Shown in pieces: positions 3,528 to 21,374 of a DNA stretch of 21,444 nucleotides (within the stretch, counting starts at the first letter, position 1; the number at the start of each line of letters is the position of its first letter). The stretch comes from a virus. The notes beneath the pieces were generated by a model that saw only the letters and a list, made by a program, of their open reading frames with translations, was not told the DNA's origin and did no database searches. The translations under genes and the position numbers were made by a program. The stretch lies in the UHGV virus genome UHGV-1982450; one strand, given 5' to 3'.

Positions 3528-3548
3528 GTCGGTCTGGGAGCCAGTTTG

Positions 3549-3611
3549 AGAGCCTGCTTCCGTATATATAAATACTAAGTGACTTATTAAATATATACGG
3601 AAGCAGGCTCT
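3549..3611. repeat. 63-bp palindromic hairpin element, copy 1
   Basis: Perfect 21-bp arms AGAGCCTGCTTCCGTATATAT (3549..3569) and ATATATACGGAAGCAGGCTCT (3591..3611). A 26-nt stretch, ACTTATTAAATATATACGGAAGCAGG (3582..3607), is identical to 11545..11570. Confidence 0.9.
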
Positions 3612-3644
3612 GAATACTCCCCAGCCCGGTTTTAAACACCCAGA

Positions 3645-3682
3645 AAACAAATTGGTTAGGCACTGAATTAAACAAGTTGTTT
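3645..3682. promoter_or_regulatory. tandem operator-like palindromes AAACAA-N-TTGTTT upstream of terS
   Basis: 3645..3657 is AAACAAATTGGTT (one mismatch) and 3670..3682 is AAACAAGTTGTTT (perfect). Both are followed by TAGG. The same motif occurs at 9514..9526 and 12443..12455. Confidence 0.55.
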
Positions 3683-8275: not shown

Positions 8276-8411
8276 GCCACAGACCACCAGCGTGTTGTTC
8301 TGCGATGGCGCTGAACCTATTTATATCAGCAATGACGATGTAATGACCGAAGAAACCGAACGCCAAATCCTTTTTCACAATACGATGGGAGAGAGAGTTT
8401 GCGGTTGGTGA
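8196..8411 (+). CDS. o-spanin-like (Rz1-like) small lipoprotein, overlapping the i-spanin gene
   Basis: Signal peptide MRRTVKYVRKMLLPFIVSCMISGC with lipobox I-S-G-C. The mature part is about 47 aa. GGAAG lies about 8 nt upstream of the ATG. The ORF overlaps 8024..8275 by 80 nt, the classic overlapped spanin layout. Confidence 0.55.
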   Translation: MRRTVKYVRKMLLPFIVSCMISGCVIKPQTTSVLFCDGAEPIYISNDDVMTEETERQILFHNTMGERVCGW

Positions 8412-8421
8412 TGTCGAAGTT

Positions 8422-8437
8422 CCCCTCAAATGAGGGG
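8422..8437. terminator. weak bidirectional hairpin between convergent genes
   Basis: CCCCTC-AAAT-GAGGGG lies between the o-spanin stop (8411) and the GNAT toxin stop (8444). It lacks a strong U-run. Confidence 0.3.
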
Positions 8438-8443
8438 GACACA

Positions 8444-8965
8444 TTATTCTTCGAACAATTTTTCGATAGATTTTGTTGGATAGAACAAAGAACGATCGTT
8501 GTTACCAACCAGCTGGATAAAGCCCAAACTTTTATAAAACGCCCTGGCTTTATCGTTCAACGCCTCAACGAAAAGCCCATGAATGCCTACCGCAAGAGAT
8601 GCATTGTACACAACACGCATTGCGTGAGTTACAAGCATTGAGCCAAGCCCCTGACCTTGAAGAGATTTGTCCAAAGCCAGTCTGCCTAAAGTGATACTTG
8701 GGACATGCCGATAAGGCACTTTCTTTTGCTGACTCTTTGAAGGTAAGGTTTCTTTCTCAAAGCAGCTGCCTGACAAAGTGTAATAACCTAATACCTTTGG
8801 TATTTCTTCTTTAGTGCAAAGCACATAAGCGCGAAGAATTTTTCCTTCATGCTGTCTTTTTAAGTGGTTGGTCAAAAATGCGTTTAGCGACTCTTCGCCG
8901 CAATCAAAACCGTTTAGATCATAATCTTTCTCTCCAGAGAAAATCTCGATCGTCGTATTGCTCAC
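8444..8965 (-). CDS. GNAT-family acetyltransferase toxin (TacT/AtaT/KacT-like type II TA toxin)
   Basis: The N-terminus FDCGEESLNAFL, the GYYTL segment and acetyl-CoA motif A QGQGLGSMLV match the toxin family that pairs with DUF1778 antitoxins. The antitoxin gene sits directly upstream. Confidence 0.85.
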   Translation of the reverse strand: MSNTTIEIFSGEKDYDLNGFDCGEESLNAFLTNHLKRQHEGKILRAYVLCTKEEIPKVLGYYTLSGSCFEKETLPSKSQQKKVPYRHVPSITLGRLALDKSLQGQGLGSMLVTHAMRVVYNASLAVGIHGLFVEALNDKARAFYKSLGFIQLVGNNDRSLFYPTKSIEKLFEE

Positions 8966-8972
8966 GAGTAAA

Positions 8973-9242
8973 TTACTCCATGCTTTTCAGACGATTGGCA
9001 GCTCGTTTCAGCTTGTCGTTCGGTGCCGGAGGATTGCTTATAGCATCCATAACCAGATTCCAGGACTCTTCACTTAGAACCAGTCTACGGTGTTGCTCTA
9101 TCACCTTCACGGCACGTTCGGATGCACTGCTAACCATGAACTGGGTAATGCTCTGGTTAGACATTGCGGCAGCTTCCTCGATGATGCTTTTATCGTCATC
9201 GGTTAATCTCAAATCGATGCGCTGCTTTTTCAGTGCGGACAT
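8973..9242 (-). CDS. DUF1778 (RHH) antitoxin, TacA/AtaR/KacA-like
   Basis: RIDLRLTDDDKSIIEEAAAMSNQSITQFMVSSASERA is the typical DUF1778 N-terminal RHH pattern. The gene lies 7 nt upstream of the toxin gene and has an SD GGGGG. Confidence 0.85.
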   Translation of the reverse strand: MSALKKQRIDLRLTDDDKSIIEEAAAMSNQSITQFMVSSASERAVKVIEQHRRLVLSEESWNLVMDAISNPPAPNDKLKRAANRLKSME

Positions 9243-9513
9243 GTGTACCCCCTGATGGCCGGTGATGTAGGAAGGCCATCATTGCTCTCTATTTAAACTG
9301 AGTTTTCGACTCAAAGGTTATTTAACTGGGCTATAGCCCATTGCGTATGTGTCATCAAATTGTGTACGGCAATTTACCGTACTCGTAATATAGAGGTGAT
9401 TGTCACTTTTTTCAACAGACAAATGAAAACAGTTACTAGCAATAGGCAATAACAACCTACTAAATAACCTTTACACCGCAGCCGTAGGCATTTAGGCTAT
9501 ATCGCATATAAGA

Positions 9514-9526
9514 AAACAAGTTGTTT
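9514..9526. promoter_or_regulatory. operator-like palindrome AAACAAGTTGTTT over a putative parA promoter
   Basis: Perfect palindrome 36 nt upstream of the parA ATG. A candidate sigma70 promoter, TAGGCA (9485..9490) - N16 - TATAAG (9507..9512), ends 2 nt before it. Confidence 0.5.
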
Positions 9527-9561
9527 CATACGACAATAATTCACGCAAAGGAAACTCACCA

Positions 9562-10227
9562 ATGACCAAGATCATTGTGGTTGGCGGCACAAAAGGCGGC
9601 CCAGGCAAATCTACCGTTGCCCAGCAAATTGCGGTATGTCTCAAAGTTAAAAAGAAAAAGAAGGTTCACGTCACCGATATCGATATCCAGCGCACCACGA
9701 CCAGCTGGTGTGAAGACCGTCGCCAGAACGAAGATCTTGAACTGATCCCGTTCGCTTATGTGCAGGACGACATCGTCAAACATCTTAAATCGCTTCAGGG
9801 GCGAACTGATTATGTAGTGGTAGATGCTGGTGGCTTTGACTCCGAAATTCAGCGTCTGGCGATGCTTATGGCTGATGTAATCATCATCCCGCTGCGCCCT
9901 AAACGTCGTGATTTGAAATCTCTGCGTGATATCGACCCGATTATCGACAACGTTCGCAATGTGAACGAGAAAGTTAAGATCCGCGCGGTAATAAACCAGT
10001 GTCCGTCATTGCCTTCCCAGGTATCACGTATTCTGGCCGCGAAGGAAATTGTCGAAACTTTCGGCATCGAGGCTGCGCCGGTTAACCTGTACAACCGTAA
10101 CGTTTATGACGATGCGGAAGAGGCAGGTCGTTCTATCTTTGAAATGACTGGCGCTGAACGCGATAAGAAGGCAGAAGCCGAGTTCGAAGAGTTTGTAGAT
10201 TACATCTTGAGTCTGGAGGAAGAATAA
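9562..10227 (+). CDS. parA: ParA-family partition ATPase (small, type Ib-like)
   Basis: Deviant Walker A GGTKGGPGKST at the N-terminus. The protein is 221 aa and is followed by a 1-nt overlapping small RHH gene. Confidence 0.9.
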   Translation: MTKIIVVGGTKGGPGKSTVAQQIAVCLKVKKKKKVHVTDIDIQRTTTSWCEDRRQNEDLELIPFAYVQDDIVKHLKSLQGRTDYVVVDAGGFDSEIQRLAMLMADVIIIPLRPKRRDLKSLRDIDPIIDNVRNVNEKVKIRAVINQCPSLPSQVSRILAAKEIVETFGIEAAPVNLYNRNVYDDAEEAGRSIFEMTGAERDKKAEAEFEEFVDYILSLEEE

Positions 10228-10586
10228 TGTCCATGAGAATGGGAGACCTTGCAAAGCGCAATGAGCCTAAAGAACCGGCCAAAAGCAGCACTCCACTGCG
10301 CCAGCCAGTCAGACCGCAGGGGCGTCCGACTCGTGGCAAAGAGAAAATTAAAAGTCGCACAATGTCACTGGAAGACGAATACTTCGAACTGCTGGAGATG
10401 ATGAAGTTCATCCCTCGTTTCGAGAAGTTCACCCGTTCTGACGTGATTCGCGCTGCTATTTTCCATCTGGCAGAGAAGTCACCGCAGGAAATCGAGGACA
10501 TCGTGAAACTTAACGAGGCGATCACAGCTGCCGATGTCACGATGCGTACCGATGAAATCAAACGAGAGTTGATGAAGAAAGGTTAA
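10227..10586 (+). CDS. putative centromere-binding RHH protein (ParG-like partner of ParA)
   Basis: ATG overlaps the parA stop (TAATG). The N-terminal tail is basic and disordered. RTMSLEDEYFELLEMM...TRSDVIRAAIFHLAE fits a strand-helix-helix RHH fold. Confidence 0.55.
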   Translation: MSMRMGDLAKRNEPKEPAKSSTPLRQPVRPQGRPTRGKEKIKSRTMSLEDEYFELLEMMKFIPRFEKFTRSDVIRAAIFHLAEKSPQEIEDIVKLNEAITAADVTMRTDEIKRELMKKG

Positions 10587-10589
10587 AAA

Positions 10590-10624
10590 TTATGCATTGG
10601 CGCAATGTACGCGCCAATGCATAA
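10590..10624. terminator. bidirectional intrinsic terminator between convergent parG-like and GIY-YIG genes
   Basis: Perfect 14-bp stem TTATGCATTGGCGC / GCGCCAATGCATAA with loop AATGTAC. It is flanked by an A-run on the left. Confidence 0.65.
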
Positions 10625-10638
10625 GTACAGTGTCAGCT

Positions 10639-11406
10639 TTATGCCGCGCTAACACTATGTTCATTCCTAACCACCCCAACCTTCACAAAAGGGCTGCCGT
10701 AGCTTGGTGGCTTCTTGATTAATTTGCCTACATACAGTTTTCTAATATGCTCATCGGCTATTCTGCCAACAAATTCATAACGTTTTGTGTCGGGGCCAAG
10801 AGCTATATCCCTTGTAAAGTACTGCTGAGAACCGGCTTTGACCCAGCATTCAATCTGATAAACTTCCATTATCAGGCCCCCATATGTAGCGTAGGCATAT
10901 TTGAGATTCTCGTCTCTTGGAACCTTTGCCCATACGCCACGCGTAGCTTCATATAATGCCAGAGCGGACATTCCTGACTTGTAGGTGCTGTTTAGCAGGA
11001 AGGCAAGACCGGCGTGCTCAGGAGCAATTTCAGTTTCCTCTTGCAGCACTAAGTGATGGTAGGCGTCCAGTGATATTCTGCCCATCATGGAACCACTTCC
11101 TCGTACCTTATTCGTAAGCTCTCCGACCCCCATAAGGTCGATGCATGTCGCCTCAACAAGTTTGGCTGTGGTTTCATCCATACCATGACGAAGAATATCT
11201 ATGCCTAATTTTTTATTAGCCAAAAGTTCTTTGATCCGCATGGATTTGGGAGAGTCATCGGGATACTTGATGTGATCGAGACAACGAGTCGATTTGCCTT
11301 TTCCTATGTAAAACGGTCTTTTCATCTTGTCTTCTGTATCATAGAGACAGTAAACATAGTATTTAGCCTTATCCAATGATCTCGCGTATACCGATAAATC
11401 GTCCAT
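10639..11406 (-). CDS. GIY-YIG nuclease-domain protein with an uncharacterised C-terminal domain
   Basis: The N-terminus YYVYCLYDTEDKMKRPFYIGKGKSTRCLDH shows the GIY...YIG...R pattern. About 150 aa of C-terminal domain is not recognised. It is the only minus-strand gene in a plus-strand neighbourhood. Confidence 0.75.
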   Translation of the reverse strand: MDDLSVYARSLDKAKYYVYCLYDTEDKMKRPFYIGKGKSTRCLDHIKYPDDSPKSMRIKELLANKKLGIDILRHGMDETTAKLVEATCIDLMGVGELTNKVRGSGSMMGRISLDAYHHLVLQEETEIAPEHAGLAFLLNSTYKSGMSALALYEATRGVWAKVPRDENLKYAYATYGGLIMEVYQIECWVKAGSQQYFTRDIALGPDTKRYEFVGRIADEHIRKLYVGKLIKKPPSYGSPFVKVGVVRNEHSVSAA

Positions 11407-11517
11407 TATTGCATCTCTTAGCTACTGACTAATGCGTTCTATTTTACACATAAGTTTTTAATCAATTTTACAGGCTCAAAGTGTAGAGCTTCTGGGTGTC
11501 TAAGACGACAAGTTATG

Positions 11518-11570
11518 CCTGTTTCTGTATATAAATAATAAGTAACTTATTAAATATATACGGAAGCAGG
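11518..11570. repeat. 53-bp near-palindromic hairpin element, copy 2
   Basis: Arms are 11518..11543 and 11545..11570 (22 of 26 positions pair, 2 more as G:T). The right arm is identical to 3582..3607. It is immediately followed by the perfect palindrome GTCTTTTAAAAGAC (11570..11583). Confidence 0.9.
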
Positions 11571-11656
11571 TCTTTTAAAAGACACCCACCAGAACAACTC
11601 CCTTCCGTTTCCACTTCCCAAAAATATCTCCAGTCGCTATGATTCGCTCACTTAGA

Positions 11657-11674
11657 TAAGTAAGTACATACCTA
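11657..11674. promoter_or_regulatory. TAAGTAAGTACATACCTA, related to the 5621..5638 palindrome
   Basis: 16 of 18 positions are identical to TAGGTAAGTACTTACCTA. It lies 14 nt upstream of the GTG start at 11689. Confidence 0.5.
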
Positions 11675-11688
11675 TTAAAGGGAATCAT

Positions 11689-12414
11689 GTGAGCCAGATC
11701 TTCTTCAACACTATCGACAATGACCAGTACGATTTCATGACAGAGTGGAACACCGCAGTCATGGATAAGTGGGTAGCGGAGAACATTGGCCTGTCACGTT
11801 GCAAGGACGAGGCGGAACTGTTCGAAACCAAATGGTTTGACTATCGCGATATGCACCCGCTCATGGCCACATGCCTTTTCACTGAGGCATACAAGCGCCA
11901 GTACTCATACATCATGCTGTCGCATGGTCGTGAACACTATGAGACGGCTCCATTCACAACCGGTCTGAAGCGTGTGCCATATCAGGAGTTGTCGACTGCC
12001 AATAAAACGTCTCTATGGAAAGCACGCCAGTTTGCTGACCGCTATTGCTGCTCATACGACTACTTTATCTCCACCGTTCTTTCCGCAGCTGCACGACGGC
12101 TGTGGGACAAATTACCGCGCCCCCAGCATCTCTGGCAGCCCGAGTTGATCGATATATTCGAAGAGAAGTTAGCCAAACGCGCTGTAACCCGTCTGGATGA
12201 CTCTCTGGTGAGTTTTAAGCATCTTGGAGACATGCAGCGTGACCCGATTCAGGAACGCTATTTTGAGTGGATTCTGGAGCGTCTGCGTGGCATTACCCGA
12301 GATAAACGCATCCGTATCATCTTCTCCGCTGTCTGGTTGATGGAAATCGTGCCTGAGCGTGTGATTTACGCGCACTTCCCGGAAGAACTGGAAGAAGCAC
12401 GGCGATTCTGTTGA
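11689..12414 (+). CDS. hypothetical protein (241 aa), first gene of the replication block
   Basis: GTG start with AAAGGGAA upstream. Same strand as, and directly upstream of, the DnaB-like helicase gene. No motif recognised, so any loader or initiator role is only positional speculation. Confidence 0.45.
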   Translation: MSQIFFNTIDNDQYDFMTEWNTAVMDKWVAENIGLSRCKDEAELFETKWFDYRDMHPLMATCLFTEAYKRQYSYIMLSHGREHYETAPFTTGLKRVPYQELSTANKTSLWKARQFADRYCCSYDYFISTVLSAAARRLWDKLPRPQHLWQPELIDIFEEKLAKRAVTRLDDSLVSFKHLGDMQRDPIQERYFEWILERLRGITRDKRIRIIFSAVWLMEIVPERVIYAHFPEELEEARRFC

Positions 12415-12442
12415 TCCCCTATCTGGCTTTTTTAGTATTAGA

Positions 12443-12455
12443 AAACAAATTGTTT
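12443..12455. promoter_or_regulatory. operator-like palindrome AAACAAATTGTTT upstream of the DnaB-like gene
   Basis: Perfect palindrome 19 nt before the ATG at 12475. A candidate promoter, TTGATC (12411..12416) - N16 - TAGTAT (12433..12438), lies just upstream. Confidence 0.5.
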
Positions 12456-12474
12456 AAGCACCAAAGGAAAGCAC

Positions 12475-13815
12475 ATGACCGAACTTTGCCACACAGGACG
12501 AGGGTTGTCTGAAGAGTTCGACGACGACTTCCAGAATAGACTCGCTGCCTACTTCTGTCGCGACCATGAGTTTCTGACTCGCGCAGGCGATCTGGTTGCC
12601 CCAAACCAGTTCTCTAATGCGGCTAACTCCATTCTGGTTAACATGGTGTCGGGCTACTACAGAATGTATAAGAGCGCACCATCATCATCAGCCATCCTCG
12701 ACATGCTCAAACGCGCCAAACGCGATAAGACGATCCGCGAAGAGCTGTTCCCTGACGTTGTTGAGGCGTTTAAGCGCATTCTCGCTGAGAAGCTGTCAGA
12801 TACGGCGTACATGGTCGACCAGGTCGCGACATTTGCTAAAAGCGTAGCGTTCGACGATGCGCTAATTAAAGCGGCTGAGATGAAAGAGAAGGGCGATTTC
12901 CAGGGCGCGATGGCAATCATGGCTAAGGTCCAGCAAATTGGCTCTAACGAAGCGACCGGCATTTACGATTACTTCGCAGAATCAGCGGAGCGTTACAAGG
13001 CCCGTGAGTACGAAGCGTCCGACGATTACGTGCCAAACAGCATCACTACCGGCCTCCCGCTGCTCGACAAACTGCTTTACCAGAAAGGCTGGGCAAAGCG
13101 TGAAATGGTGCTGTTTATGGGCTTCGCTAAGTCTGGTAAATCGACGGCGATGGGGGAGTTTTCCATCAACGCCACGCTTGCCGGTTACAACGTCCTGTAT
13201 CTGTCGCTGGAAGTTCACACCTCCATTCTGTCAGATCGCTTTGACGCCCGTCTGTCTGAGACCGAAATGTCCAGGCTGGTGGAACGTCGCGATGACGTCC
13301 ATCGCAAACTGGCGGAGCTGGGTGCGACGAAAGGCGTGGGAAGTTTGTGGATTGTTGAACGACCGTCCGGAAGCATGTCGCCCGCAGATCTGGATCGTAT
13401 GTTGGGCAGCATGAAAGCCAACGGCATGGTCCCCGATATGGTTGTGGTCGACTACGCTGACCTGATGCGTGCCAGCTACGACCTCCGCGACGACCGCGCT
13501 AACATTCGCAGCATCTACACTGACCTGCGTGCGCTGTACGACAAACACAACGTTGCCGGCATCACGGCATCGCAGACTAACAGAGAAGGTGGCGCTTCTG
13601 AGGTGGCTACAATGATGCACGCAGCGGACAACATCGAGAAGGTGCGTATCGCTGACCTCGTTATCACTATCAACAAAACGGAAGAAGAAGAAGCGAAAGG
13701 CGAAGCGCGTCTTTACTTCGCTGGTTCACGTAACCAGAAAGGCGGCGTAAGCATCCGCGTTAAGCAGAACCTCGAACAAATGCGATTCATCGAACGCATT
13801 ATGGACGTCCTCTAA
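12475..13815 (+). CDS. DnaB-family replicative helicase
   Basis: Walker A GFAKSGKST, Walker B VVVDYADLM and an SQTNREG motif characteristic of the DnaB/RecA-like C-terminal domain. 446 aa. Confidence 0.85.
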   Translation: MTELCHTGRGLSEEFDDDFQNRLAAYFCRDHEFLTRAGDLVAPNQFSNAANSILVNMVSGYYRMYKSAPSSSAILDMLKRAKRDKTIREELFPDVVEAFKRILAEKLSDTAYMVDQVATFAKSVAFDDALIKAAEMKEKGDFQGAMAIMAKVQQIGSNEATGIYDYFAESAERYKAREYEASDDYVPNSITTGLPLLDKLLYQKGWAKREMVLFMGFAKSGKSTAMGEFSINATLAGYNVLYLSLEVHTSILSDRFDARLSETEMSRLVERRDDVHRKLAELGATKGVGSLWIVERPSGSMSPADLDRMLGSMKANGMVPDMVVVDYADLMRASYDLRDDRANIRSIYTDLRALYDKHNVAGITASQTNREGGASEVATMMHAADNIEKVRIADLVITINKTEEEEAKGEARLYFAGSRNQKGGVSIRVKQNLEQMRFIERIMDVL

Positions 13816-13821
13816 AAAAGA

Positions 13822-13848
13822 AGGCGTGGGGAAACACTCTCCACGCCT
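13822..13848 (-). terminator. hairpin with a U-run only in the minus orientation
   Basis: Stem AGGCGTGG / CCACGCCT. On the minus strand it is followed by TTCTTTTTTA; on the plus strand by TGTCTCC. It may block antisense read-through, and its function is uncertain. Confidence 0.3.
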
Positions 13849-13875
13849 GTCTCCAGAAGAGAACAAATTTCTCTT

Positions 13876-15087
13876 TTGCCAAAACCACAAAAGAAAAAAC
13901 ACATGAGCCTTTATGGTATTCAAATACCGAGGCTTATCAAGATATTACCTGCAAAAAATAGGGGTAAGAACGTGAGCGACTTGAAAGAATTACTGACCGA
14001 GCTGGATTTTGAGCAATGGCTCGATATGGAAGGGATCATCTACCGTCGTGGTGGAGTCAGTACTCGCGGACGAGAGGTCAACATTAAAGAGTGTCCGGTA
14101 TGCGGCAGCTCAAACTGGAAGGTTTATTTCAACCTGACCAGTGGTGTCGGCAAATGCTTTGCAGGCGATCATCCCGAAGAGATTCAGTTCAACAAGCTGG
14201 TCTTCCTAAAGCATTACAGCGGCAAATCTCGTCGCGATTTTGAAGAGTACGTCCAGAACGCGCTGATCTCACAAGGATGGGCACCGAAGAAGGAAGAGAT
14301 CGTACTGGCCAGCAAGGTTGAACTGGAAGGACCGGTAGCTCTCCCGCGCCATTACGAACTCCCCATTGACGGTCGTCTTCCTGATTATCTGGTGGAGCGC
14401 CAGATTTCCCCGGAGCTGGCCAAATACTTTGATCTGCGTTACTGCGTCGAAGGCAAGCACGCATACGTCGATCCGTACACAGACCAGGTCAAAGGACAGG
14501 TATTCGATATGCGAATACTGATACCGGTTTACGATCTGGATGGCGTGATGAAGACCTTCCAGGGTCGTGACATTACCGGTGCAGCAGAACGCCGGTATCT
14601 GTTCCCCATGCAGCTGCCAGCATCGGGTAAATTTCTCTACAACGGCCACAATGCAGTCGGCAAACAGACTGTAGTTGTCTGTGAGGGGGCGTTCGATGTT
14701 ATGGGGGTTAAACGAGCTATTTTTGATGAAGAAACATTACGCGATTACGTGGAACCGATAGGAACGTTCGGGATGCATCTATCTGGTAACACCACTCAGG
14801 ATGCAGAAGATCAGTTGGGCGCGTTCCTGACGCTCAAGGCGCGTGGATTACGTAATGTGATTATGATGTGGGATAGTGAAAAGCAAGCTATACGCAACAC
14901 GATGGCCGCAGCCAGGCGACTGACTAGTATCGGTCTTAATGTCAAAGTAGCGTGTTTGGGCGAGGAAGGACTCGACCCCGGCGATGCGACACCGGGGCAG
15001 ATTATCAAAGCCTACTATTGCGCAAAACCTTATTCACGACAGCTTGAACTTTTAAGCAAGGTAAAAGGCATAGCTGCATTAGTTTGA
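13876..15087 (+). CDS. DNA primase (Zn-finger + Toprim, DnaG/T7 gp4-like)
   Basis: Zn-finger CPVCGSSNWKVYFNLTSGVGKCFAGDH, Toprim glutamate VVVCEGAFDVMG, and an acidic MMWDSE motif. The track start at 13876 is TTG; the true start may be the ATG at 13903 or the GTG at 13972. Confidence 0.8.
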   Translation: MPKPQKKKHMSLYGIQIPRLIKILPAKNRGKNVSDLKELLTELDFEQWLDMEGIIYRRGGVSTRGREVNIKECPVCGSSNWKVYFNLTSGVGKCFAGDHPEEIQFNKLVFLKHYSGKSRRDFEEYVQNALISQGWAPKKEEIVLASKVELEGPVALPRHYELPIDGRLPDYLVERQISPELAKYFDLRYCVEGKHAYVDPYTDQVKGQVFDMRILIPVYDLDGVMKTFQGRDITGAAERRYLFPMQLPASGKFLYNGHNAVGKQTVVVCEGAFDVMGVKRAIFDEETLRDYVEPIGTFGMHLSGNTTQDAEDQLGAFLTLKARGLRNVIMMWDSEKQAIRNTMAAARRLTSIGLNVKVACLGEEGLDPGDATPGQIIKAYYCAKPYSRQLELLSKVKGIAALV

Positions 15088-15174
15088 ACCAGTATTATCA
15101 ACGGCTCGGTAGTGTCTAAATTATCCGTGGCGATTCAGTTCTTTTCGTGGGTATGTCTACTTATAGATATTTGT

Positions 15175-15202
15175 TTGTGTTGTGTTCTTGGTCGAATACA
15201 AT
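15175..15202 (+). promoter_or_regulatory. candidate sigma70 promoter of the island operon
   Basis: TTGTGT (15175..15180) - N16 - TACAAT (15197..15202), about 30 to 50 nt upstream of the possible DprA-like starts. Pattern match only. Confidence 0.25.
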
Positions 15203-15229
15203 TAATCTGCATGGTTAATGGACTAAAAA

Positions 15230-16216
15230 TTGTCGTTCTTTGGGGGAGAAGTGAACATTGTAGATGCTCTTGTTCTCAAGAAGTTAATGAGCGTTGGTGA
15301 TGAAACTGTTCTGTCAATCTTAAAGTTTTCAGCGTACAGCGGAGTGTCAACACTCGAAGAACTGGTAGTTAACTCCTCCAATCTGAAAATCTCAAATGGT
15401 AAATCTCGAGCAACTCTCGAAAGTTTCTTCGACGCTGCGAACTTCCAGGCTCTCAGGGACGAAGTAAAAACAGAGATTGATTCGTTCAAAAATAAAGGAG
15501 TTGAGATTGTTATCTTCGGTTCGAAAAACTATCCAATTTCGTTATATGATCTCCCGAAACCTCCACCCTTTCTTTACTGTAAAGGCAATCTAAATCTCTT
15601 AGAGAATAGGCTTTCATTAGCTGTTGTAGGAACTCGTGAAAACACCCCCAAGGGTGAAACCCTAACGATTAAAACTATTCAAAAGTTTGCGACTTATGGC
15701 TTCACGATAGTCAGTGGACTTGCACTGGGTATCGATACAATTGCTCATCGCGCGGCATTAGATGCCAAAACACCAACGATTTCTGTTCTTGTCGATGTGG
15801 AGTCTATTTCTCCCGCAAGTAATCGGGAACTCGCTAAGGAAATATTGGACGAGGGCGGACTTCTAGTTGCAGAGAATGCACCAGGAACCAAAGCAATACC
15901 TGCGTTCTTTGCTAAGCGAGACAGGATACAAGCAGGTTTATCTACTGCCGTCTTTGCTATTGAAACTTCGATAGATGGTGGGACGATGCACGCAGTCAAA
16001 TCTGCTATCTCTATGATGCGTCCTGTCTTCGTTCCTGACGTACATAAAGCTAAGTATCCAGATCTTACTATCAAGGCAATTTCAGGAACTCAACAGCTAG
16101 TTAACGAAGGGAGGGCGATACCATACACGAGCGAATCTTATGAAGATATTCGTCTTCAATTAGAAGATATCGCGAGTTCATTTGGGTCGTTGAAAGCAAA
16201 AGGTGGCCTGCTGTGA
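15230..16216 (+). CDS. DprA/Smf-family (Rossmann/SLOG-like) DNA-processing protein homologue
   Basis: The canonical DprA core runs YPISLYDLPKPPPFLYCKGN...LAVVGTRENTPKG...IVSGLALGIDTIAHRAAL...FFAKRDRIQAGLS...ETSIDGGTMHAV. The N-terminal part resembles the DprA SAM/HhH-like region. The track start is TTG (15230); GTG at 15251, after GGGGGAG, is an alternative. Confidence 0.85.
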   Translation: MSFFGGEVNIVDALVLKKLMSVGDETVLSILKFSAYSGVSTLEELVVNSSNLKISNGKSRATLESFFDAANFQALRDEVKTEIDSFKNKGVEIVIFGSKNYPISLYDLPKPPPFLYCKGNLNLLENRLSLAVVGTRENTPKGETLTIKTIQKFATYGFTIVSGLALGIDTIAHRAALDAKTPTISVLVDVESISPASNRELAKEILDEGGLLVAENAPGTKAIPAFFAKRDRIQAGLSTAVFAIETSIDGGTMHAVKSAISMMRPVFVPDVHKAKYPDLTIKAISGTQQLVNEGRAIPYTSESYEDIRLQLEDIASSFGSLKAKGGLL

Positions 16217-19200
16217 TAAAGGTCATCGTCCTCGATCTTGATGACACGCTTATTGATACATCAAGCCTCGAACCACTTCGGTTAGCTGGCCGATGGAGAG
16301 ACATACCCAGGTACTTTAATGGTTGTGTCATCAATCAGGACGTTGTCGGCCTTGTTACAACGGCTCGGTCGGTTGGAATCAAGGTTGCTATCTTCTCGAA
16401 TGCGCCTTCGAACTACGTTCAGGGGCTACTCAAACACTTCAGTATCACTGTTGATTATGTAGTAGCCTACCATGATGTAACGCAGCATAAGCCGAGCCCT
16501 GAGGGCGTTACTCGTATTCTCGAGTACTTCGGTGTTAGCGCCGACGAGTCAATTTATTTAGGAGATAGTAACCTAGATCGAGACGCTGCTTCCAATGCAG
16601 GAGTTGAGTTTTTCTCAGTAGATTGGGGTTCTGCCTCGGAGATCGATTCGTCACATAAGGGAATAAGCGGTCTCTCCGAGCTTATTGGAAAAAACTCGAC
16701 GCGGAGCTCCGCAAGAACTGGACGTTCTGAGTTAATACAATCTGGGAATAAACTTCATCTGGGATTCTATTTAGATGGTATCAAACAGGAAGTTTGGTCT
16801 TTCAAGGATAACAAGAATACTTCTGTTCGCCGCTGGGTTAACAAGACTGTTGAGCTAGCTTCTTCATTCCCAGCCATAGATATAGTTGTTCGAGCGTTAG
16901 GTCACGCTGAGCTTAGGGCTGAAGATGGCGATAAAGCATTAGATACCTTGGGCAAATCGCTGGCTGTTGCTTTAGGGGCTTCTTACCAACCTAAGATATT
17001 AGAGAAAGATCACGTATTAGATAAATCGACTAATTGCACTGCAGCACAAAGACTCCACCAGGTCAGAGGTGCCTATAAAGCCGATTTTGATTCAATAGAA
17101 GCTAATTCAAATCCGACATTTCTGATCATTGACGACGTATTAACTTCGGGGGCTACAACTGATGAGATAACACGCTGTCTATCTCAAGCTTTTCCGAATT
17201 CAAGTATTTACATTTTTACGTTGGTTAAAACTCTCTATAGATTGGAGCTATGCACTGACAGCCAAGAACAACAACACAATAACCAACTGTTTTCAGATTT
17301 GTACAACCCAATCATCGACTCGCTGGCGGACGAAAGTGAACTATCTAGACATGTCAGGTCGAAGTCTAGTAGCAGGCTTGTAAGCAAGAAGTTTTCTGCT
17401 AACTACGCGAGAACCAACCATAACTTCATTTTCCACAATCTTCTCCAGTATTCTATCTCGTCTGAAGCGGCGTCTGGACAGCTATTTGCAGCAATTCAAG
17501 TTCTTAAGAATATGCTTCAGAGAGGGAAGCCAACAATAGCCTCGCGGAAGCTGAGGAAGGCATTTGGCATTGAACTGGATCAGAACGTTCTTAATACACC
17601 AGCTCAGGCTCTTGTGTCAGATAAGCCGGTTTTTTGGAATAGATTGATTCGAGGCCACAAACAGTCAGGAAACTACCCAGCGAAAAGGTTTTTTGATGAG
17701 CTGATACCGAAGTATTTCGGTAAGTACATTTTTGTAAAACAACTAATGCTCCCTGAAGTCCAGATTTACGATATGACTCAGGTCTACGTTGAACAATTCC
17801 AGAACCGACAGGTAGATTTTTACATTCCTCAAGTTGGTTTAATTATTGAGATAGACGGTCAGCAGCACCAAAATTCTCAGCATTTAGATGAAATGAGGGA
17901 TGCGTTTACCGAAAGCCTGGGACTGAAGACTGTTCGATTCACTGTTCAAGAACTGGCATCTGAGAACCAGTCATTTATCAGTAAGATAAATTCGATTATT
18001 TCTCACATTCAGATCGTTGATGGTCTAGAGCGAAATGGTGTCCTAACGCCTCCTAATGGTATTTCTTTATTGAATTACCAAGAGGCTTACGAAAATGGAG
18101 TCGATGTTACTGACTCGCGATTGAGGCTGACCTCGGCGTTGCGTTTCCAGATACTGTTATTAGAGCTTCTTGAACGCGGTCAGATCAGACTAGGGGAGTT
18201 GAAAAAACTATTCATAGTCAATCGTGATGGAACTGATTTTGCTGAAGCGGCACTGGACGACCTGAACGATTTGTTATCGAATATCTTTCGTCTCATCGGC
18301 ATTGAAGAAAAGCGAATTGAGGTTGCGCTGATCGAATCAGATGAGCTTCCGAGCGAACGGTCTGGTGAAAATATATTCATCGACTTCAGCTTACTGGAGC
18401 GTTATGACGATTCCTTTCAAGTTAACCAAGACGTCATATATTCACGTACGGATTACTTCGATTTCTATCGAAACTTCGAAGATTCTGATGCTGTTTCAAT
18501 AGAAACCAGTCAATTGATTGACTATGACTTTTTTGAGCTTTCATGTAGTAACCCCATTACCTACAAGCTAGATCTTAGCCCAGGCAGCGAGCAGAGAGAG
18601 TCGCTGAGATACTTCCTCAGCAACCTGTTTCTACCATACCTAGAGGATGTAGATTTCAGGGAAGGGCAGGTTGGTATCATAGGATCTGCACTTTCGAAAA
18701 ACGGCACAATAGGATTGCTGCCTACAGGTTCGGGTAAGTCGATTTGTTACCAGCTGTCTGCGGTCCTGCAACCAGCCGTTAGCTTTGTCGTGTGCCCGAT
18801 AAAAAGTTTGATGTATGACCAGAAAGCAGATTTGGATAGCATCGGCTTCACTCGAAGCAATTTTATTACAAGTGATTTGAAGGCAGGAGAGAAGGCCAAA
18901 GTTCAGAGAGATTTCGGACGTGGTAAGTACTTCTTCGTTTTTATATCGCCTGAGCGATTCCAAACCCATGCGTTTAGAAAAGAGATGTTGGCTATCGGAC
19001 TAGATCTCTCATTTGCCTACGCGGTGATCGATGAAGCTCACTGTTTGTCTGAGTGGGGACATGATTTCAGGACTTCTTATCTGAACCTGGCAAATACAAT
19101 CGAACGGTTTGCTCCCAGTGCGAGTTATATAGGTCTAACGGCAACAGCATCAGTTAACGTCCTAAAGGATATTCAAACAGAGTTTGATATCCCAGATGAT

Positions 19201-20889
19201 TTTGTCCGTACCCCCATGGACTTCACTCGCGAGGAACTATCATTCCACGTCATTGACGATAAAGGCCGTAAAGGTGATGCAGTCGTCGAGCTTGTTTCTG
19301 AAATGGAGGGTAAATGGAATTCAGATGGGGAAGACGGCAATAAGGCGGGGATCATATTCACTTCTACCGTCAACGGAGCTAAGGGGTGTTATAGCTTAGC
19401 GGGCCGAATATCAACACTCTTGAAGATGGATGTTAGATATTTTTCGGGGTCGGCTCCGAAAATGGGTGGATTGCAGGGAGAGGCTTTCGATAGATATAAG
19501 CGCCAAGTTCAAGACGATTTTAAAGAAAATAAATACCGCCTACTTACTGCCACTAAGGCATTCGGAATGGGCGTGAATAAGGGAAATATTGCCTATACGG
19601 TTCACTTCGGAATACCTGGGTCGATGGAGGCCTTGTATCAGGAAGCTGGCAGGGCAGGGCGAGATAAAAAACTATTCAAGGAAGTACCCGCAGATTGCTA
19701 TGTGCTTCTCACAAAAGAGCCCAATTCAGCTATTCTCGACAAGATTTGGGACGCTAGCACGAACGTCAAAGATCTGAAGGAGTACGTGAAGTCATTGAGT
19801 CGCGATAGCGACCTGAACACAAATCTATTCCTGATGACAAACGGCTTGGGCACAATCAATGATGAGTTCAAGTTGATGGCAAATGTATACGAATTTTTTA
19901 AGTACAATCAGGAACACAACACGGTGACCATTACTGCCAGGCAGTTTGGTACGGAAAAGTTTAAATTGGAAAAGGCTATCTACCGCCTTTCTCAATTAGG
20001 TATTGTCTCTGACTGGGTAATCGAAGACTTTTTTAATGGAACGCTCTCTGTCGAGTTCCAGTGCCTATCGGAAGAAGGCCTGGAAAAGAAAATTGAGCAT
20101 ACCGTCAGAAAGTATGATCCTGAGTTTAAGCTCGCTGATGTGTTCAGTAGTGATAACCAGTACTACAAAATTCTCTGCGACAAGCTGAGAAAAGGGTCTA
20201 TCGATAAATCGCAATTTATCTTTCTTGTTCTTTTACTTTGGTCCTATGACCATTTTGTCTACAACCGCCGCCAGTCACAGAAGAACGTTTATGAACACTG
20301 TAGTTTATTTGCTGAAGGCAGGATGGATGGTAAAGAATTTAAGGAGAAGTTAGAGGGTTATTTCAGACACGACAAGTCGAGCCAACTTTTGCTCAATATG
20401 GCTGAGAATTCTGTGTCGGTGAAGTTATGGCCATCAGTTTTTTTTGAAACTGATGAAGAAGAGGGCTCGGAACATTTAGTAAGCAGCGAGAAGATGACGA
20501 TCCTACGAGGTCAGATTTCTCGATTCCTAGAGTCATACAAAGATAATGCATTCTTGAACTACTTGAGTGGTGTGCTGCGACTAGCTTCCGATGAGTTTGA
20601 TGATGCAGATGGAGAGCGAAGAATGGCATCGTCATTTGATCGGTTGATCAGTGATAATAGGGATGAAGCACTAGAGCTGGTCCGAAAAACTATGCAGTTA
20701 AAACCAATATTTTCTGAAAATGCGCGAAGTCGCTTTGCTCGTTTGGTCCATGAGAAATTTGAAGATTTGGATTTTCTTGGGGAAGTAAATGAAGAGCTAG
20801 GAGATCCGTTCTCCTATCACACTTTGTTAGCTCCACTGGCAATTAGACTTGAAAAACTTACCAGCCTATACAAGGGGATTAATTGGTGA
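16213..20889 (+). CDS. 1558-aa multidomain protein: HAD phosphatase + type I PRTase (ComF-like) + DUF559/Vsr-like PD-(D/E)xK nuclease + RecQ-family helicase core + unknown C-terminal region
   Basis: HAD motifs: DLDDT (D8/D10, nt 16234..16248), FSNAP, K93, GDSNLDRDAASNAG (nt 16561..). PRPP loop: FLIIDDVLTSGATT (nt 17119..17160). Nuclease motif: DFYIPQVGLIIEIDGQQH...VRFTVQEL (nt 17815..17955). RecQ motifs: FREGQ (18655), PTGSGKSICYQ (18721), VIDEAHCLSEWGHDFR (19027..), LTATAS, ATKAFGMGVNK, YQEAGRAGRD (..19665). The GTG start overlaps the DprA-like stop (GTGA, 16213..16216), with AAGGTGG 6 nt upstream. Confidence 0.9.
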   Translation: MIKVIVLDLDDTLIDTSSLEPLRLAGRWRDIPRYFNGCVINQDVVGLVTTARSVGIKVAIFSNAPSNYVQGLLKHFSITVDYVVAYHDVTQHKPSPEGVTRILEYFGVSADESIYLGDSNLDRDAASNAGVEFFSVDWGSASEIDSSHKGISGLSELIGKNSTRSSARTGRSELIQSGNKLHLGFYLDGIKQEVWSFKDNKNTSVRRWVNKTVELASSFPAIDIVVRALGHAELRAEDGDKALDTLGKSLAVALGASYQPKILEKDHVLDKSTNCTAAQRLHQVRGAYKADFDSIEANSNPTFLIIDDVLTSGATTDEITRCLSQAFPNSSIYIFTLVKTLYRLELCTDSQEQQHNNQLFSDLYNPIIDSLADESELSRHVRSKSSSRLVSKKFSANYARTNHNFIFHNLLQYSISSEAASGQLFAAIQVLKNMLQRGKPTIASRKLRKAFGIELDQNVLNTPAQALVSDKPVFWNRLIRGHKQSGNYPAKRFFDELIPKYFGKYIFVKQLMLPEVQIYDMTQVYVEQFQNRQVDFYIPQVGLIIEIDGQQHQNSQHLDEMRDAFTESLGLKTVRFTVQELASENQSFISKINSIISHIQIVDGLERNGVLTPPNGISLLNYQEAYENGVDVTDSRLRLTSALRFQILLLELLERGQIRLGELKKLFIVNRDGTDFAEAALDDLNDLLSNIFRLIGIEEKRIEVALIESDELPSERSGENIFIDFSLLERYDDSFQVNQDVIYSRTDYFDFYRNFEDSDAVSIETSQLIDYDFFELSCSNPITYKLDLSPGSEQRESLRYFLSNLFLPYLEDVDFREGQVGIIGSALSKNGTIGLLPTGSGKSICYQLSAVLQPAVSFVVCPIKSLMYDQKADLDSIGFTRSNFITSDLKAGEKAKVQRDFGRGKYFFVFISPERFQTHAFRKEMLAIGLDLSFAYAVIDEAHCLSEWGHDFRTSYLNLANTIERFAPSASYIGLTATASVNVLKDIQTEFDIPDDFVRTPMDFTREELSFHVIDDKGRKGDAVVELVSEMEGKWNSDGEDGNKAGIIFTSTVNGAKGCYSLAGRISTLLKMDVRYFSGSAPKMGGLQGEAFDRYKRQVQDDFKENKYRLLTATKAFGMGVNKGNIAYTVHFGIPGSMEALYQEAGRAGRDKKLFKEVPADCYVLLTKEPNSAILDKIWDASTNVKDLKEYVKSLSRDSDLNTNLFLMTNGLGTINDEFKLMANVYEFFKYNQEHNTVTITARQFGTEKFKLEKAIYRLSQLGIVSDWVIEDFFNGTLSVEFQCLSEEGLEKKIEHTVRKYDPEFKLADVFSSDNQYYKILCDKLRKGSIDKSQFIFLVLLLWSYDHFVYNRRQSQKNVYEHCSLFAEGRMDGKEFKEKLEGYFRHDKSSQLLLNMAENSVSVKLWPSVFFETDEEEGSEHLVSSEKMTILRGQISRFLESYKDNAFLNYLSGVLRLASDEFDDADGERRMASSFDRLISDNRDEALELVRKTMQLKPIFSENARSRFARLVHEKFEDLDFLGEVNEELGDPFSYHTLLAPLAIRLEKLTSLYKGINW

Positions 20890-21374
20890 ATGACATACAG
20901 AAACTACACCGGGTAATCGATTCACTCGAAGAGCAATCGACGCAAGTGGCACAGTTTAATGGCCTGTTGAGCGCCGTCAGCGATGCAAGAACTGAGATAG
21001 AGGCTGCGAAATCAACGCTCGTAAATCTAGCTTATGAACACGCTGAATTGTTTACGAAGAACTCGAATAAATTTGAAGAGTTTGACGGCCGCCTTATGTC
21101 ACTAAATGATCTTCTAGGCCAGATCAAAGATGAACAGTTGAAACTAAGGCGTGAGGTTGCAGCCTTGAAGTTTGTAACACCAGAGCAGTTTGAACAAGGC
21201 TGCACAGCAATTGATAGCCGCATTGCTAAACAATTAGCGGAATTGAAAAGCAAGTTAGAGGCGGCGGCGGAGTCTCAGCAAAGATCGATAAGCGGGCTAC
21301 GAACCATAGTTGTTTTAGGTATCTTGGTGTTGGCTGGAGGTGTCGGATTCTTGGCTATGAATATTTTTCTTTAA
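20883..21374 (+). CDS. coiled-coil protein with a C-terminal transmembrane anchor
   Basis: About 140 aa of heptad-like helical sequence, then TIVVLGILVLAGGVGFLAMNIFL at the extreme C-terminus. The likely start is GTG 20886, which overlaps the upstream stop (GTGA 20886..20889), with AAGGGGA 7 nt upstream. The track start TTG 20883 is in the same frame. Confidence 0.6.
   Translation: MVNDIQKLHRVIDSLEEQSTQVAQFNGLLSAVSDARTEIEAAKSTLVNLAYEHAELFTKNSNKFEEFDGRLMSLNDLLGQIKDEQLKLRREVAALKFVTPEQFEQGCTAIDSRIAKQLAELKSKLEAAAESQQRSISGLRTIVVLGILVLAGGVGFLAMNIFL

Follow-up and report, generated by a model that had tools for sequence, protein, structure and literature searches.

A Putative PD-T4-3/CMoRE-Family Nuclease Gene in a Variable Cargo Slot of an SSU5-like Phage-Plasmid

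What is a lone minus-strand gene doing between the partition and replication modules of a phage-plasmid? The gene in question occupies positions 10639-11406 of the UHGV virus genome UHGV-1982450, analysed here as a single stretch of 21,444 nucleotides that we refer to as the window. An earlier examination of the letters alone, made without database searches (the sequence-only reading), had taken it for a GIY-YIG nuclease gene inserted as a moron-type accessory element, either selfish or defensive. The reading that we favour, with a probability of about 0.78, is that the gene encodes a type IV restriction endonuclease of the PD-T4-3/CMoRE family, carried as exchangeable anti-phage cargo of an SSU5-like phage-plasmid.

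Assignment of the Gene Product to the PD-T4-3/CMoRE Family

The gene and the two domains of its product are located as follows.

10639-11406, minus strand: nuclease open reading frame (ORF), ATG start, 255 amino acids, confirmed as real
11095-11373, minus strand: GIY-YIG domain (PF22945), six catalytic positions invariant in 47 clade members
10672-11094, minus strand: C-terminal domain (residues 105 to about 245), by alignment and model homologous to the modification-sensing domain of CMoRE

The ORF coordinates and the GIY-YIG motifs in the N-terminal part were as the sequence-only reading had described them. The protein starts MDDLSVYARSLDKAKYYVYCLYD...RPFYIGKGKSTRCLDH and contains the N-terminal motifs KYYVY...FYIGKG...R41; the C-terminal strings that had been quoted previously, RGVWAKV and YGGLIMEVYQIECW, are present in the translation. 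The gene had also been called the only minus-strand gene in a run of plus-strand operons. This holds for the run 9562-21374, but a toxin-antitoxin pair at 8444-9242 and two genes at 278-2118 are likewise on the minus strand.

The sole PADLOC match of the nuclease was PD-T4-3 (PDLC04031, E=1.3e-23), with residues 11-231 aligned to positions 11-238 of the 256-position profile (89% of the profile), and PD-T4-3 was the only PADLOC family matched by 47 of the 47 members of the clade. A phmmer search against the sequences of PDB entries returned only 9U7U/9U7Z (E=2e-15) and 9U75/9U8D (E=3.4e-15), the matched region (residues 12-230) extending over both domains, and blastp gave 32% identity to CMoRE over residues 16-230. 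In Pfam the nuclease matched only LEM-3_GIY-YIG (PF22945; 30.1 bits against a cutoff of 27; residues 32-104), which is a domain-level label only. PHROGs returned only a family of unknown function, a search of NCBIfam found no match, and the RefSeq name is "LEM-3-like GIY-YIG domain-containing protein".

An AlphaFold2 model based on 47 homologues had a predicted local distance difference test score (pLDDT) of 84.3 and a predicted template modelling score of 0.79, and contained two domains connected by a low-confidence linker (residues 95-110). Foldseek with the full-length model placed four CMoRE entries on top (E about 1e-11, probability 1.0). The global template modelling score (TM-score) against CMoRE was low at 0.38, likely as a result of a differing orientation of the domains around the flexible linker, and the C-terminal domain was therefore modelled and searched alone. 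The isolated domain (pLDDT 82.5) matched chain 9u75_D with E=1.4e-6, probability 1.0, a TM-score of 0.58 and a root mean square deviation of 3.8 Å, and Foldseek gave no other significant match for it besides CMoRE. Because the sequence alignment runs to residue 230 and the domain-only search also leads to CMoRE, this part of the protein appears clearly homologous to the CMoRE modification-sensor domain. The sequence-only reading had listed the domain as unrecognised, a description that is out of date now that the structure of CMoRE was solved in 2026, and the Foldseek search that it had proposed returned this sensor rather than a housekeeping function.

Judged from these comparisons, the nuclease is an uncharacterised and divergent full-length homologue of PD-T4-3/CMoRE. 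PD-T4-3, first found in the functional screen of Vassallo et al. 2022 as cited in PMC12923530, was characterised, renamed CMoRE and had its structure solved in 2026 (Liu et al., Nat Commun 2026, PMC12923530). The enzyme binds and cleaves DNA containing 5-hydroxymethylcytosine (5hmC) or glucosyl-5hmC, but not DNA containing cytosine or 5-methylcytosine, with the cut site CN11/N9G; it forms a tetramer (a dimer of dimers), which is required for activity, and gives E. coli ~10^5-fold protection from T2, T4 and T6 as a direct defence (PMC12923530). The likeness extends to the format of the protein. The CMoRE enzymes of E. coli O157:H7 and APEC O1 (PDB 9U75, 9U8D, 9U7U, 9U7Z) are single genes of about 255-262 amino acids, and they share with the window nuclease an N-terminal GIYxY-YIG nuclease domain with a Tyr/Tyr/Tyr/Arg/Glu/Asn set and a homologous C-terminal domain, such that the proteins align over their full length. 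The window nuclease too is a stand-alone single gene, of 255 residues, with what appears to be its own terminator.

Catalytic Site and Homologues

A search of a collection of 5.8 billion proteins found 288 homologues of the nuclease, up to E=6e-167; together with the E value of the family hidden Markov model, this places the ORF signal far beyond chance. Many of the 288 are ~245-255 amino acids long and 50-79% identical. The named sources are Salmonella, Pluralibacter, Providencia, Shewanella, Zobellella and an uncultured gammaproteobacterium, in some cases on contigs of chromosome size, and one homologue from JGI is labelled 'Uncharacterized protein conserved in bacteria'. When 1.84 billion representative proteins were searched with a profile, 3,104 relatives were found at E<=1e-3, of which 1,327 were at E<=1e-10. 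The context of the homologue on a Leclercia plasmid was uninformative.

In the 47-sequence alignment, Tyr-17, Tyr-19, Tyr-33, Gly-35, Arg-41, His-45, Glu-85 and Asn-99 are invariant, as are many C-terminal positions. The arrangement K-Y-Y17-V-Y19 ... F-Y33-I-G-K-G conforms to the GIYxY-YIG motif with its third tyrosine, and Y17/Y19/Y33/R41/E85/N99 align to Y17/Y19/Y31/R39/E93/N105 of the canonical enzyme. All six catalytic residues are retained in 110 of 112 wider full-length representatives, and the GIY-YIG site of the window nuclease is thus intact. Comparison with the copy in phage PhiR41_1 gave a ratio of nonsynonymous to synonymous substitution rates (dN/dS) of 0.079, indicating purifying selection; for distant homologues dN was 0.16-0.38 and dS was saturated, giving no dN/dS.

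A Variable Slot between the Partition and Replication Modules

Several E. coli plasmids match region 9000-13000 with 100% identity, and the phages SSU5, Cyrano, PhiR41_1, CMS-2020a and pJN2-26 match it with 81-92%; on account of these matches the window is part of an E. coli SSU5-like phage-plasmid. Among its genes, those for ParA, a parG-like protein, a 241-residue protein with which the replication module opens, a DnaB-like helicase and a primase were named from Pfam and from the annotation of related records; a terminase and a portal protein were named from their translations. Within this backbone the nuclease gene belongs to a cassette with defined parts and borders.

10585-11517, no strand assigned: variable cargo cassette of ~930 bp in the slot between the partition (par) and replication (rep) modules
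10585-10624, minus strand: intrinsic-terminator-like hairpin (stem-loop 10590-10624) and T-run, ending the nuclease gene
11407-11517, minus strand: AT-rich 5' part of the cassette, with a Shine-Dalgarno-like AAGAG inside
11518-11570, no strand assigned: conserved palindrome of the backbone, bounding the slot on the right; the first copy of this element is at 3546-3614
10227-10586, plus strand: parG-like gene downstream of parA, bounding the slot on the left with its stop codon (context, outside the cassette)

The backbone is homologous to that of SSU5, Cyrano, pJN2-26 and six plasmids as far as 10582-10590, at the parG stop codon, and again from 11508-11518, where the palindrome begins. Between these identical borders the nine aligned relatives have seven other types of cargo, of 816-1938 bp, and the slot contains at least seven mutually exclusive types. 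Cyrano has a single DUF2971 gene, an annotation also found in the slot of many of the sampled Klebsiella and Enterobacter plasmids. SSU5 and pJN2-26 have genes for 214 and 136 residues in addition to DUF2971, and pHCM2 from S. Typhi CT18 has a slot similar in size to theirs, with a DUF2971 annotation. Other relatives carry a 564-residue KAP-family P-loop NTPase, a 352-residue minus-strand protein, a 225-residue minus-strand protein, pairs of 246 or 255 plus 136 residues, or an IS3 insertion. In PADLOC, the DUF2971 cargo hits the candidate system PDC-S31 (E=2e-33 to 3e-41) and the KAP NTPase another candidate, PDC-S49 (E=5e-22). Searches of Pfam, PADLOC, NCBIfam and PDB sequences found nothing for the other cargo proteins except a weak beta-trefoil-like match for the 352-residue protein. 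An empty junction was seen neither in the nine aligned relatives nor in 60 sampled plasmids, a sample that is not exhaustive. The comparison of this junction among relatives, which the sequence-only reading had recommended, therefore gives the patchy presence and conserved flanks expected of homing, yet in the relatives covered the slot is always filled by some other cargo.

Such a slot resembles the defence-cargo hotspots of temperate phages and satellites, such as those of P2 and P4 (e.g. PMC13586616), in its fixed position, its sharp conserved borders and its small cargo genes, which exclude one another and include several known or candidate defence systems. It differs in its location, which is between the par and rep modules of a phage-plasmid related to SSU5, and in that most of its alternative occupants are uncharacterised. 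The unannotated occupants (the 352- and 225-residue minus-strand proteins, the 246/255 plus 136-residue pairs, and the 214- and 136-residue genes beside DUF2971) are candidates for new defence genes.

The inverted repeat reported at the 3' side of the nuclease gene was found exactly, as a perfect 14-bp stem (arms 10590-10603 and 10611-10624) with a 7-nt loop. Directly after the stem, the minus strand reads TTTTT (10589-10585), overlapping the parG stop codon, whereas on the plus strand no T-run was found 3' of the stem, the letters there being GTACAGTG. Because the canonical T-tract rule is satisfied on the minus strand only, the hairpin looks like the nuclease gene's own intrinsic terminator and is not demonstrably the bidirectional one that the sequence-only reading had described. 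At the other end of the gene, the Shine-Dalgarno-like AAGAG lies at 11419-11415, 8 nt ahead of the ATG, in a spacer (11407-11688) of 35% GC.

The palindrome at 11518-11570 has 26-nt arms that are 85% complementary, and the region 11470-11610 folded as single-stranded DNA has a z score of -5.6 relative to shuffled sequences. The 43-nt core of the palindrome (11528-11570) recurs with 95% identity at 3565-3607, within the first palindrome (3546-3614), in agreement with the earlier description of a second copy of a large palindrome bounding the gene on its 5' side. The palindrome is kept in SSU5, Cyrano, pJN2-26 and six plasmids, all of which are without the nuclease gene. Both palindromes are AT-rich and precede the opening gene of a plus-strand module (3723 and 11689) by ~110-120 bp, and an additional 31-nt repeat of 81% identity follows each palindrome region (3642-3672 and 12440-12470). 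The paired palindromes may be a shared operator or regulatory site.

Composition and Spread of the Cassette

The GC content at third codon positions of the nuclease gene is 44.5%, compared with 53-64% for parA, parG, rep and dnaB, and resembles that of other accessory genes in the window. Over its whole length the cassette has a GC content of 43.4%, and the window one of 47.9%. Counts of 26/60 and 27/60 G or C in the lines starting at 10681 and 11221, from which an intermediate composition had been suggested previously, were exact.

In a comparison with PhiR41_1 over positions 9466-12973 of the window, the nuclease gene shows 98.8% identity and parA, rep and dnaB show 80-84%, with values in between for parG (93.6%) and the upstream spacer (94.8%). 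Because the nuclease gene is so much more alike than the backbone, the pattern points to a recent exchange by recombination into a diverged backbone, with endpoints that would lie in or near the flanks. Among 741 related plasmids, 116 showed at least 80% coverage of a par-rep query that included the cassette, and 136 plasmids carry the nuclease gene with at least 99% identity. The cassette is present in 107 of 5,426 complete E. coli genomes (~2%), on plasmids only, these being SSU5-like phage-plasmids. Low third-position GC, presence in a minority of relatives, the contrast in identity with PhiR41_1 and an intact catalytic site all bear out the proposal of a moron-type accessory insertion. The observations that would have spoken against it did not arise: the gene is not universal in relatives with backbone-like composition, its catalytic residues are present and its C-terminal domain does not match a housekeeping function.

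A tblastn search of PLSDB with canonical CMoRE gave 181 records, of which 12 were of the canonical type (at least 80% identity) and 169 were below 60%. Going by sequence identity, the SSU5 cassette (~136 plasmids, 32% identical) makes up most of these 169, and by this search the cassette nuclease is the commonest plasmid-borne relative of PD-T4-3 in PLSDB. A preprint lists PD-T4-3, called by DefenseFinder, in SSU5-group phage-plasmids of E. coli and Shigella (bioRxiv 10.1101/2025.09.12.675607). Given the share of the cassette among the sub-60% matches, these calls probably refer to the gene described here.

A remnant consisting of the hairpin and the 3' gene end only (158 bp, 96% identical) is found in NZ_CP107722.1 (locus L015, 3501-3658) among insertion sequence (IS) elements, with an IS26 transposase gene directly downstream. 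We considered it as a recombination scar and rejected this reading; with such surroundings it is most likely the product of an IS-mediated truncation.

Proposed Function and Alternatives

The fold and chemistry of the predicted nuclease are well supported by alignment and model; its substrate range, oligomeric state, expression, recombination route and safeguard against self-cleavage are what we infer. By homology, the C-terminal domain would bind hypermodified bases of incoming phage DNA, which for the characterised enzymes are the 5-hydroxymethyl- and glucosyl-hydroxymethyl-cytosine of T-even phages. Cutting of the bound DNA would then fall to the N-terminal GIYxY-YIG domain, with the protein probably acting as an oligomer. 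Host and phage-plasmid DNA without such bases would be spared, so that no methyltransferase partner would be required, and the phage-plasmid would gain a host that survives lytic T-even-like phages. The cassette, comprising the gene, its putative terminator and the AT-rich upstream region, would move between diverged backbones by recombination in the flanks.

Several observations weigh against this proposal. Identity to any characterised enzyme is only ~32%. An acidic autoinhibitory loop of 15 residues, one of the two hallmarks of CMoRE, is absent from the clade of the window nuclease. In the crystallised enzymes the corresponding segment has 22 residues with DDDE or DDDD; in the window nuclease the segment from His-45 to Ile-58 has 14 residues (HIKYPDDSPKSMRI) with two acidic ones ('DD'), the canonical lid (…GEVAAVDDDELL…) being replaced by a stretch eight residues shorter. 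The 14-residue form occurs in 73 of the 112 related representatives, and four consecutive acidic residues occur in none of the 112. The loop is described as inserted between helices 2 and 3 in 'most' family members, not all (PMC12923530). At the canonical dimer interface, Arg-80 corresponds to the invariant Arg-73 and Val-92 to Val-84 (Ile or Val in the clade), but Leu-96 is replaced by an invariant cysteine, Cys-88. Tyr-127, the one residue named as a 5hmC contact, has the variable Gln-122 as its counterpart, within a linker that aligns poorly. No convincing promoter for the nuclease gene was found in a σ70 consensus scan and an ad hoc scan of the upstream region, the best candidate from the ad hoc scan being a -10 element TAAAAT at 11446-11441 with a poor -35. 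Obvious defence islands were not found around the chromosomal homologues in Providencia and Shewanella, whose neighbours are housekeeping genes.

The missing lid, the unconserved residue at the 5hmC contact, the cysteine at the interface and the low identity are also what would be expected if the protein had the same fold and defence role and responded to another trigger. It might recognise other modified bases, such as arabinosyl-hydroxymethylcytosine or Mom-modified adenine, or be controlled otherwise than by an acidic safety-catch, and its phage range would then differ. The family has documented plasticity of substrate: PD-T4-3Capno, which is 48% identical to PD-T4-3, is modification-dependent, and its targets include Mom-modified Mu DNA (Rodriguez-Rodriguez et al. 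2025, PMC12366544). We nevertheless regard a changed trigger as improbable. The sensor domain appears clearly homologous to that of CMoRE, and all family members assayed so far restrict T-even phages in a modification-dependent manner. Moreover, the named contact with the 5-hydroxyl is made by the main-chain oxygen of Tyr-127 (PMC12923530), and divergence of the side chain is for this reason little informative.

A selfish role would require a free-standing GIY-YIG homing endonuclease that cuts the cargo-less parG-rep junction and is copied in by repair. The patchy distribution with conserved flanks, and a PhiR41_1 cassette much more alike than the backbone around it, would suit such an element. 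In I-TevI and T4 SegA-G, by comparison, the nuclease goes together with a DNA-binding domain of the homing type and has an empty cognate site; here the C-terminal half is a homologue of the CMoRE sensor, and Pfam gives GIY-YIG only, with no NUMOD, zinc-finger or helix-turn-helix module found. No empty site was encountered among the nine aligned or 60 sampled sequences, which have the same borders with other cargo, and the close homologues are single genes in unrelated chromosomal and plasmid contexts. Homing is thus very improbable, because alternative cargo with identical borders fits the swapping of genes at a hotspot. Of the two roles that the sequence-only reading had left open, the defensive one gains from the full-length homology to PD-T4-3/CMoRE and the selfish one loses. 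Least credible of all, to the point where it can practically be set aside, is a backbone function in replication, partition, dimer resolution or packaging. Nothing speaks for it except the position between the par and rep modules beside the conserved palindrome, and the palindrome itself belongs to the backbone and not to the cassette. Around 84% of related plasmids have no coverage of the cassette part of the query, SSU5, Cyrano and pJN2-26 are viable phages without the gene, and its composition is unlike that of the backbone.

We therefore retain as the preferred reading a PD-T4-3/CMoRE-family restriction endonuclease in exchangeable cargo. A wider proposal combines two elements: that the slot is a dedicated, recombination-driven hotspot for defence cargo containing undiscovered anti-phage systems, and that the clade without the lid has another safeguard or another range of modifications. 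This joint proposal is possible, yet we hold it to be somewhat doubtful.

Relation to Known Systems and Significance

The PvuRts1I/AbaSI family, GmrSD, the EVE-HNH enzyme VcaM4I and McrBC are type IV enzymes directed against 5hmC or glucosylated 5hmC. The window nuclease would resemble them in having a modified-base reader fused to a nuclease, in having no cognate methyltransferase and in being aimed at hypermodified DNA of the T-even type. Within its own family it differs from CMoRE in being carried by a phage-plasmid, as well as in the short loop and the substitutions described above. PD-T4-3 is active in its native clinical E. coli host. PD-T4-3Capno offers a precedent for a divergent member of the family that works in E. 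coli as a modification-dependent nuclease; it comes from Capnocytophaga.

Earlier publications cover the family and its mechanism as well as its occurrence on SSU5-group elements, and what is new here is, by sequence comparison, a divergent member without the lid. The current understanding is unchanged by this finding. What it adds is a name, based on mechanism, for a gene known in RefSeq only as LEM-3-like GIY-YIG and assigned by PHROGs to a family of unknown function. If the enzyme is active, phage-plasmids of this kind would render their hosts resistant to T-even-type phages, which is relevant to phage therapy and to phage-plasmid ecology. The fixed cargo slot is a cheap place in which to seek new defence genes, and the slot with its unknown occupants is the more useful by-product of the analysis.

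Other Features of the Window

The parG-like protein has 119 residues and matches PHROG 5111, of unknown function; a search of Pfam found no match for it. Its orthologue in Cyrano is annotated 'RelE/ParE putative toxin', and we saw no support for that annotation.

A second variable region, at 8276-9560, lies between the lysis genes and parA (corresponding to L001 287-1443, L002 945-1779 and L004 735-1292 in three of the aligned loci). In the window and in Cyrano it contains a minus-strand pair encoding a GNAT toxin and a DUF1778 antitoxin, similar to KacAT; in the window this pair is at 8444-9242. SSU5 and PhiR41_1 have two plus-strand hypothetical genes in the same region, and pJN2-26 has a minus-strand gene for 185 residues. 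With one variable region on each side, the par operon is therefore flanked by two cargo slots.

At 15230-20889 there is a low-GC defence locus of two genes. One encodes a DprA-family protein similar to ShosA/PsyrA (PADLOC ShosA, E=1.5e-67) and the other, which overlaps it, encodes a protein of 1558 residues. The latter has a ShosT-like match (residues 254-358), a match of the methyl-directed restriction endonuclease type (residues 513-600) and a match to the DpdF/PsyrT helicase (residues 471-1471, E=3e-112), and is an unusually large fusion for a Shosta/PsyrTA-type system.

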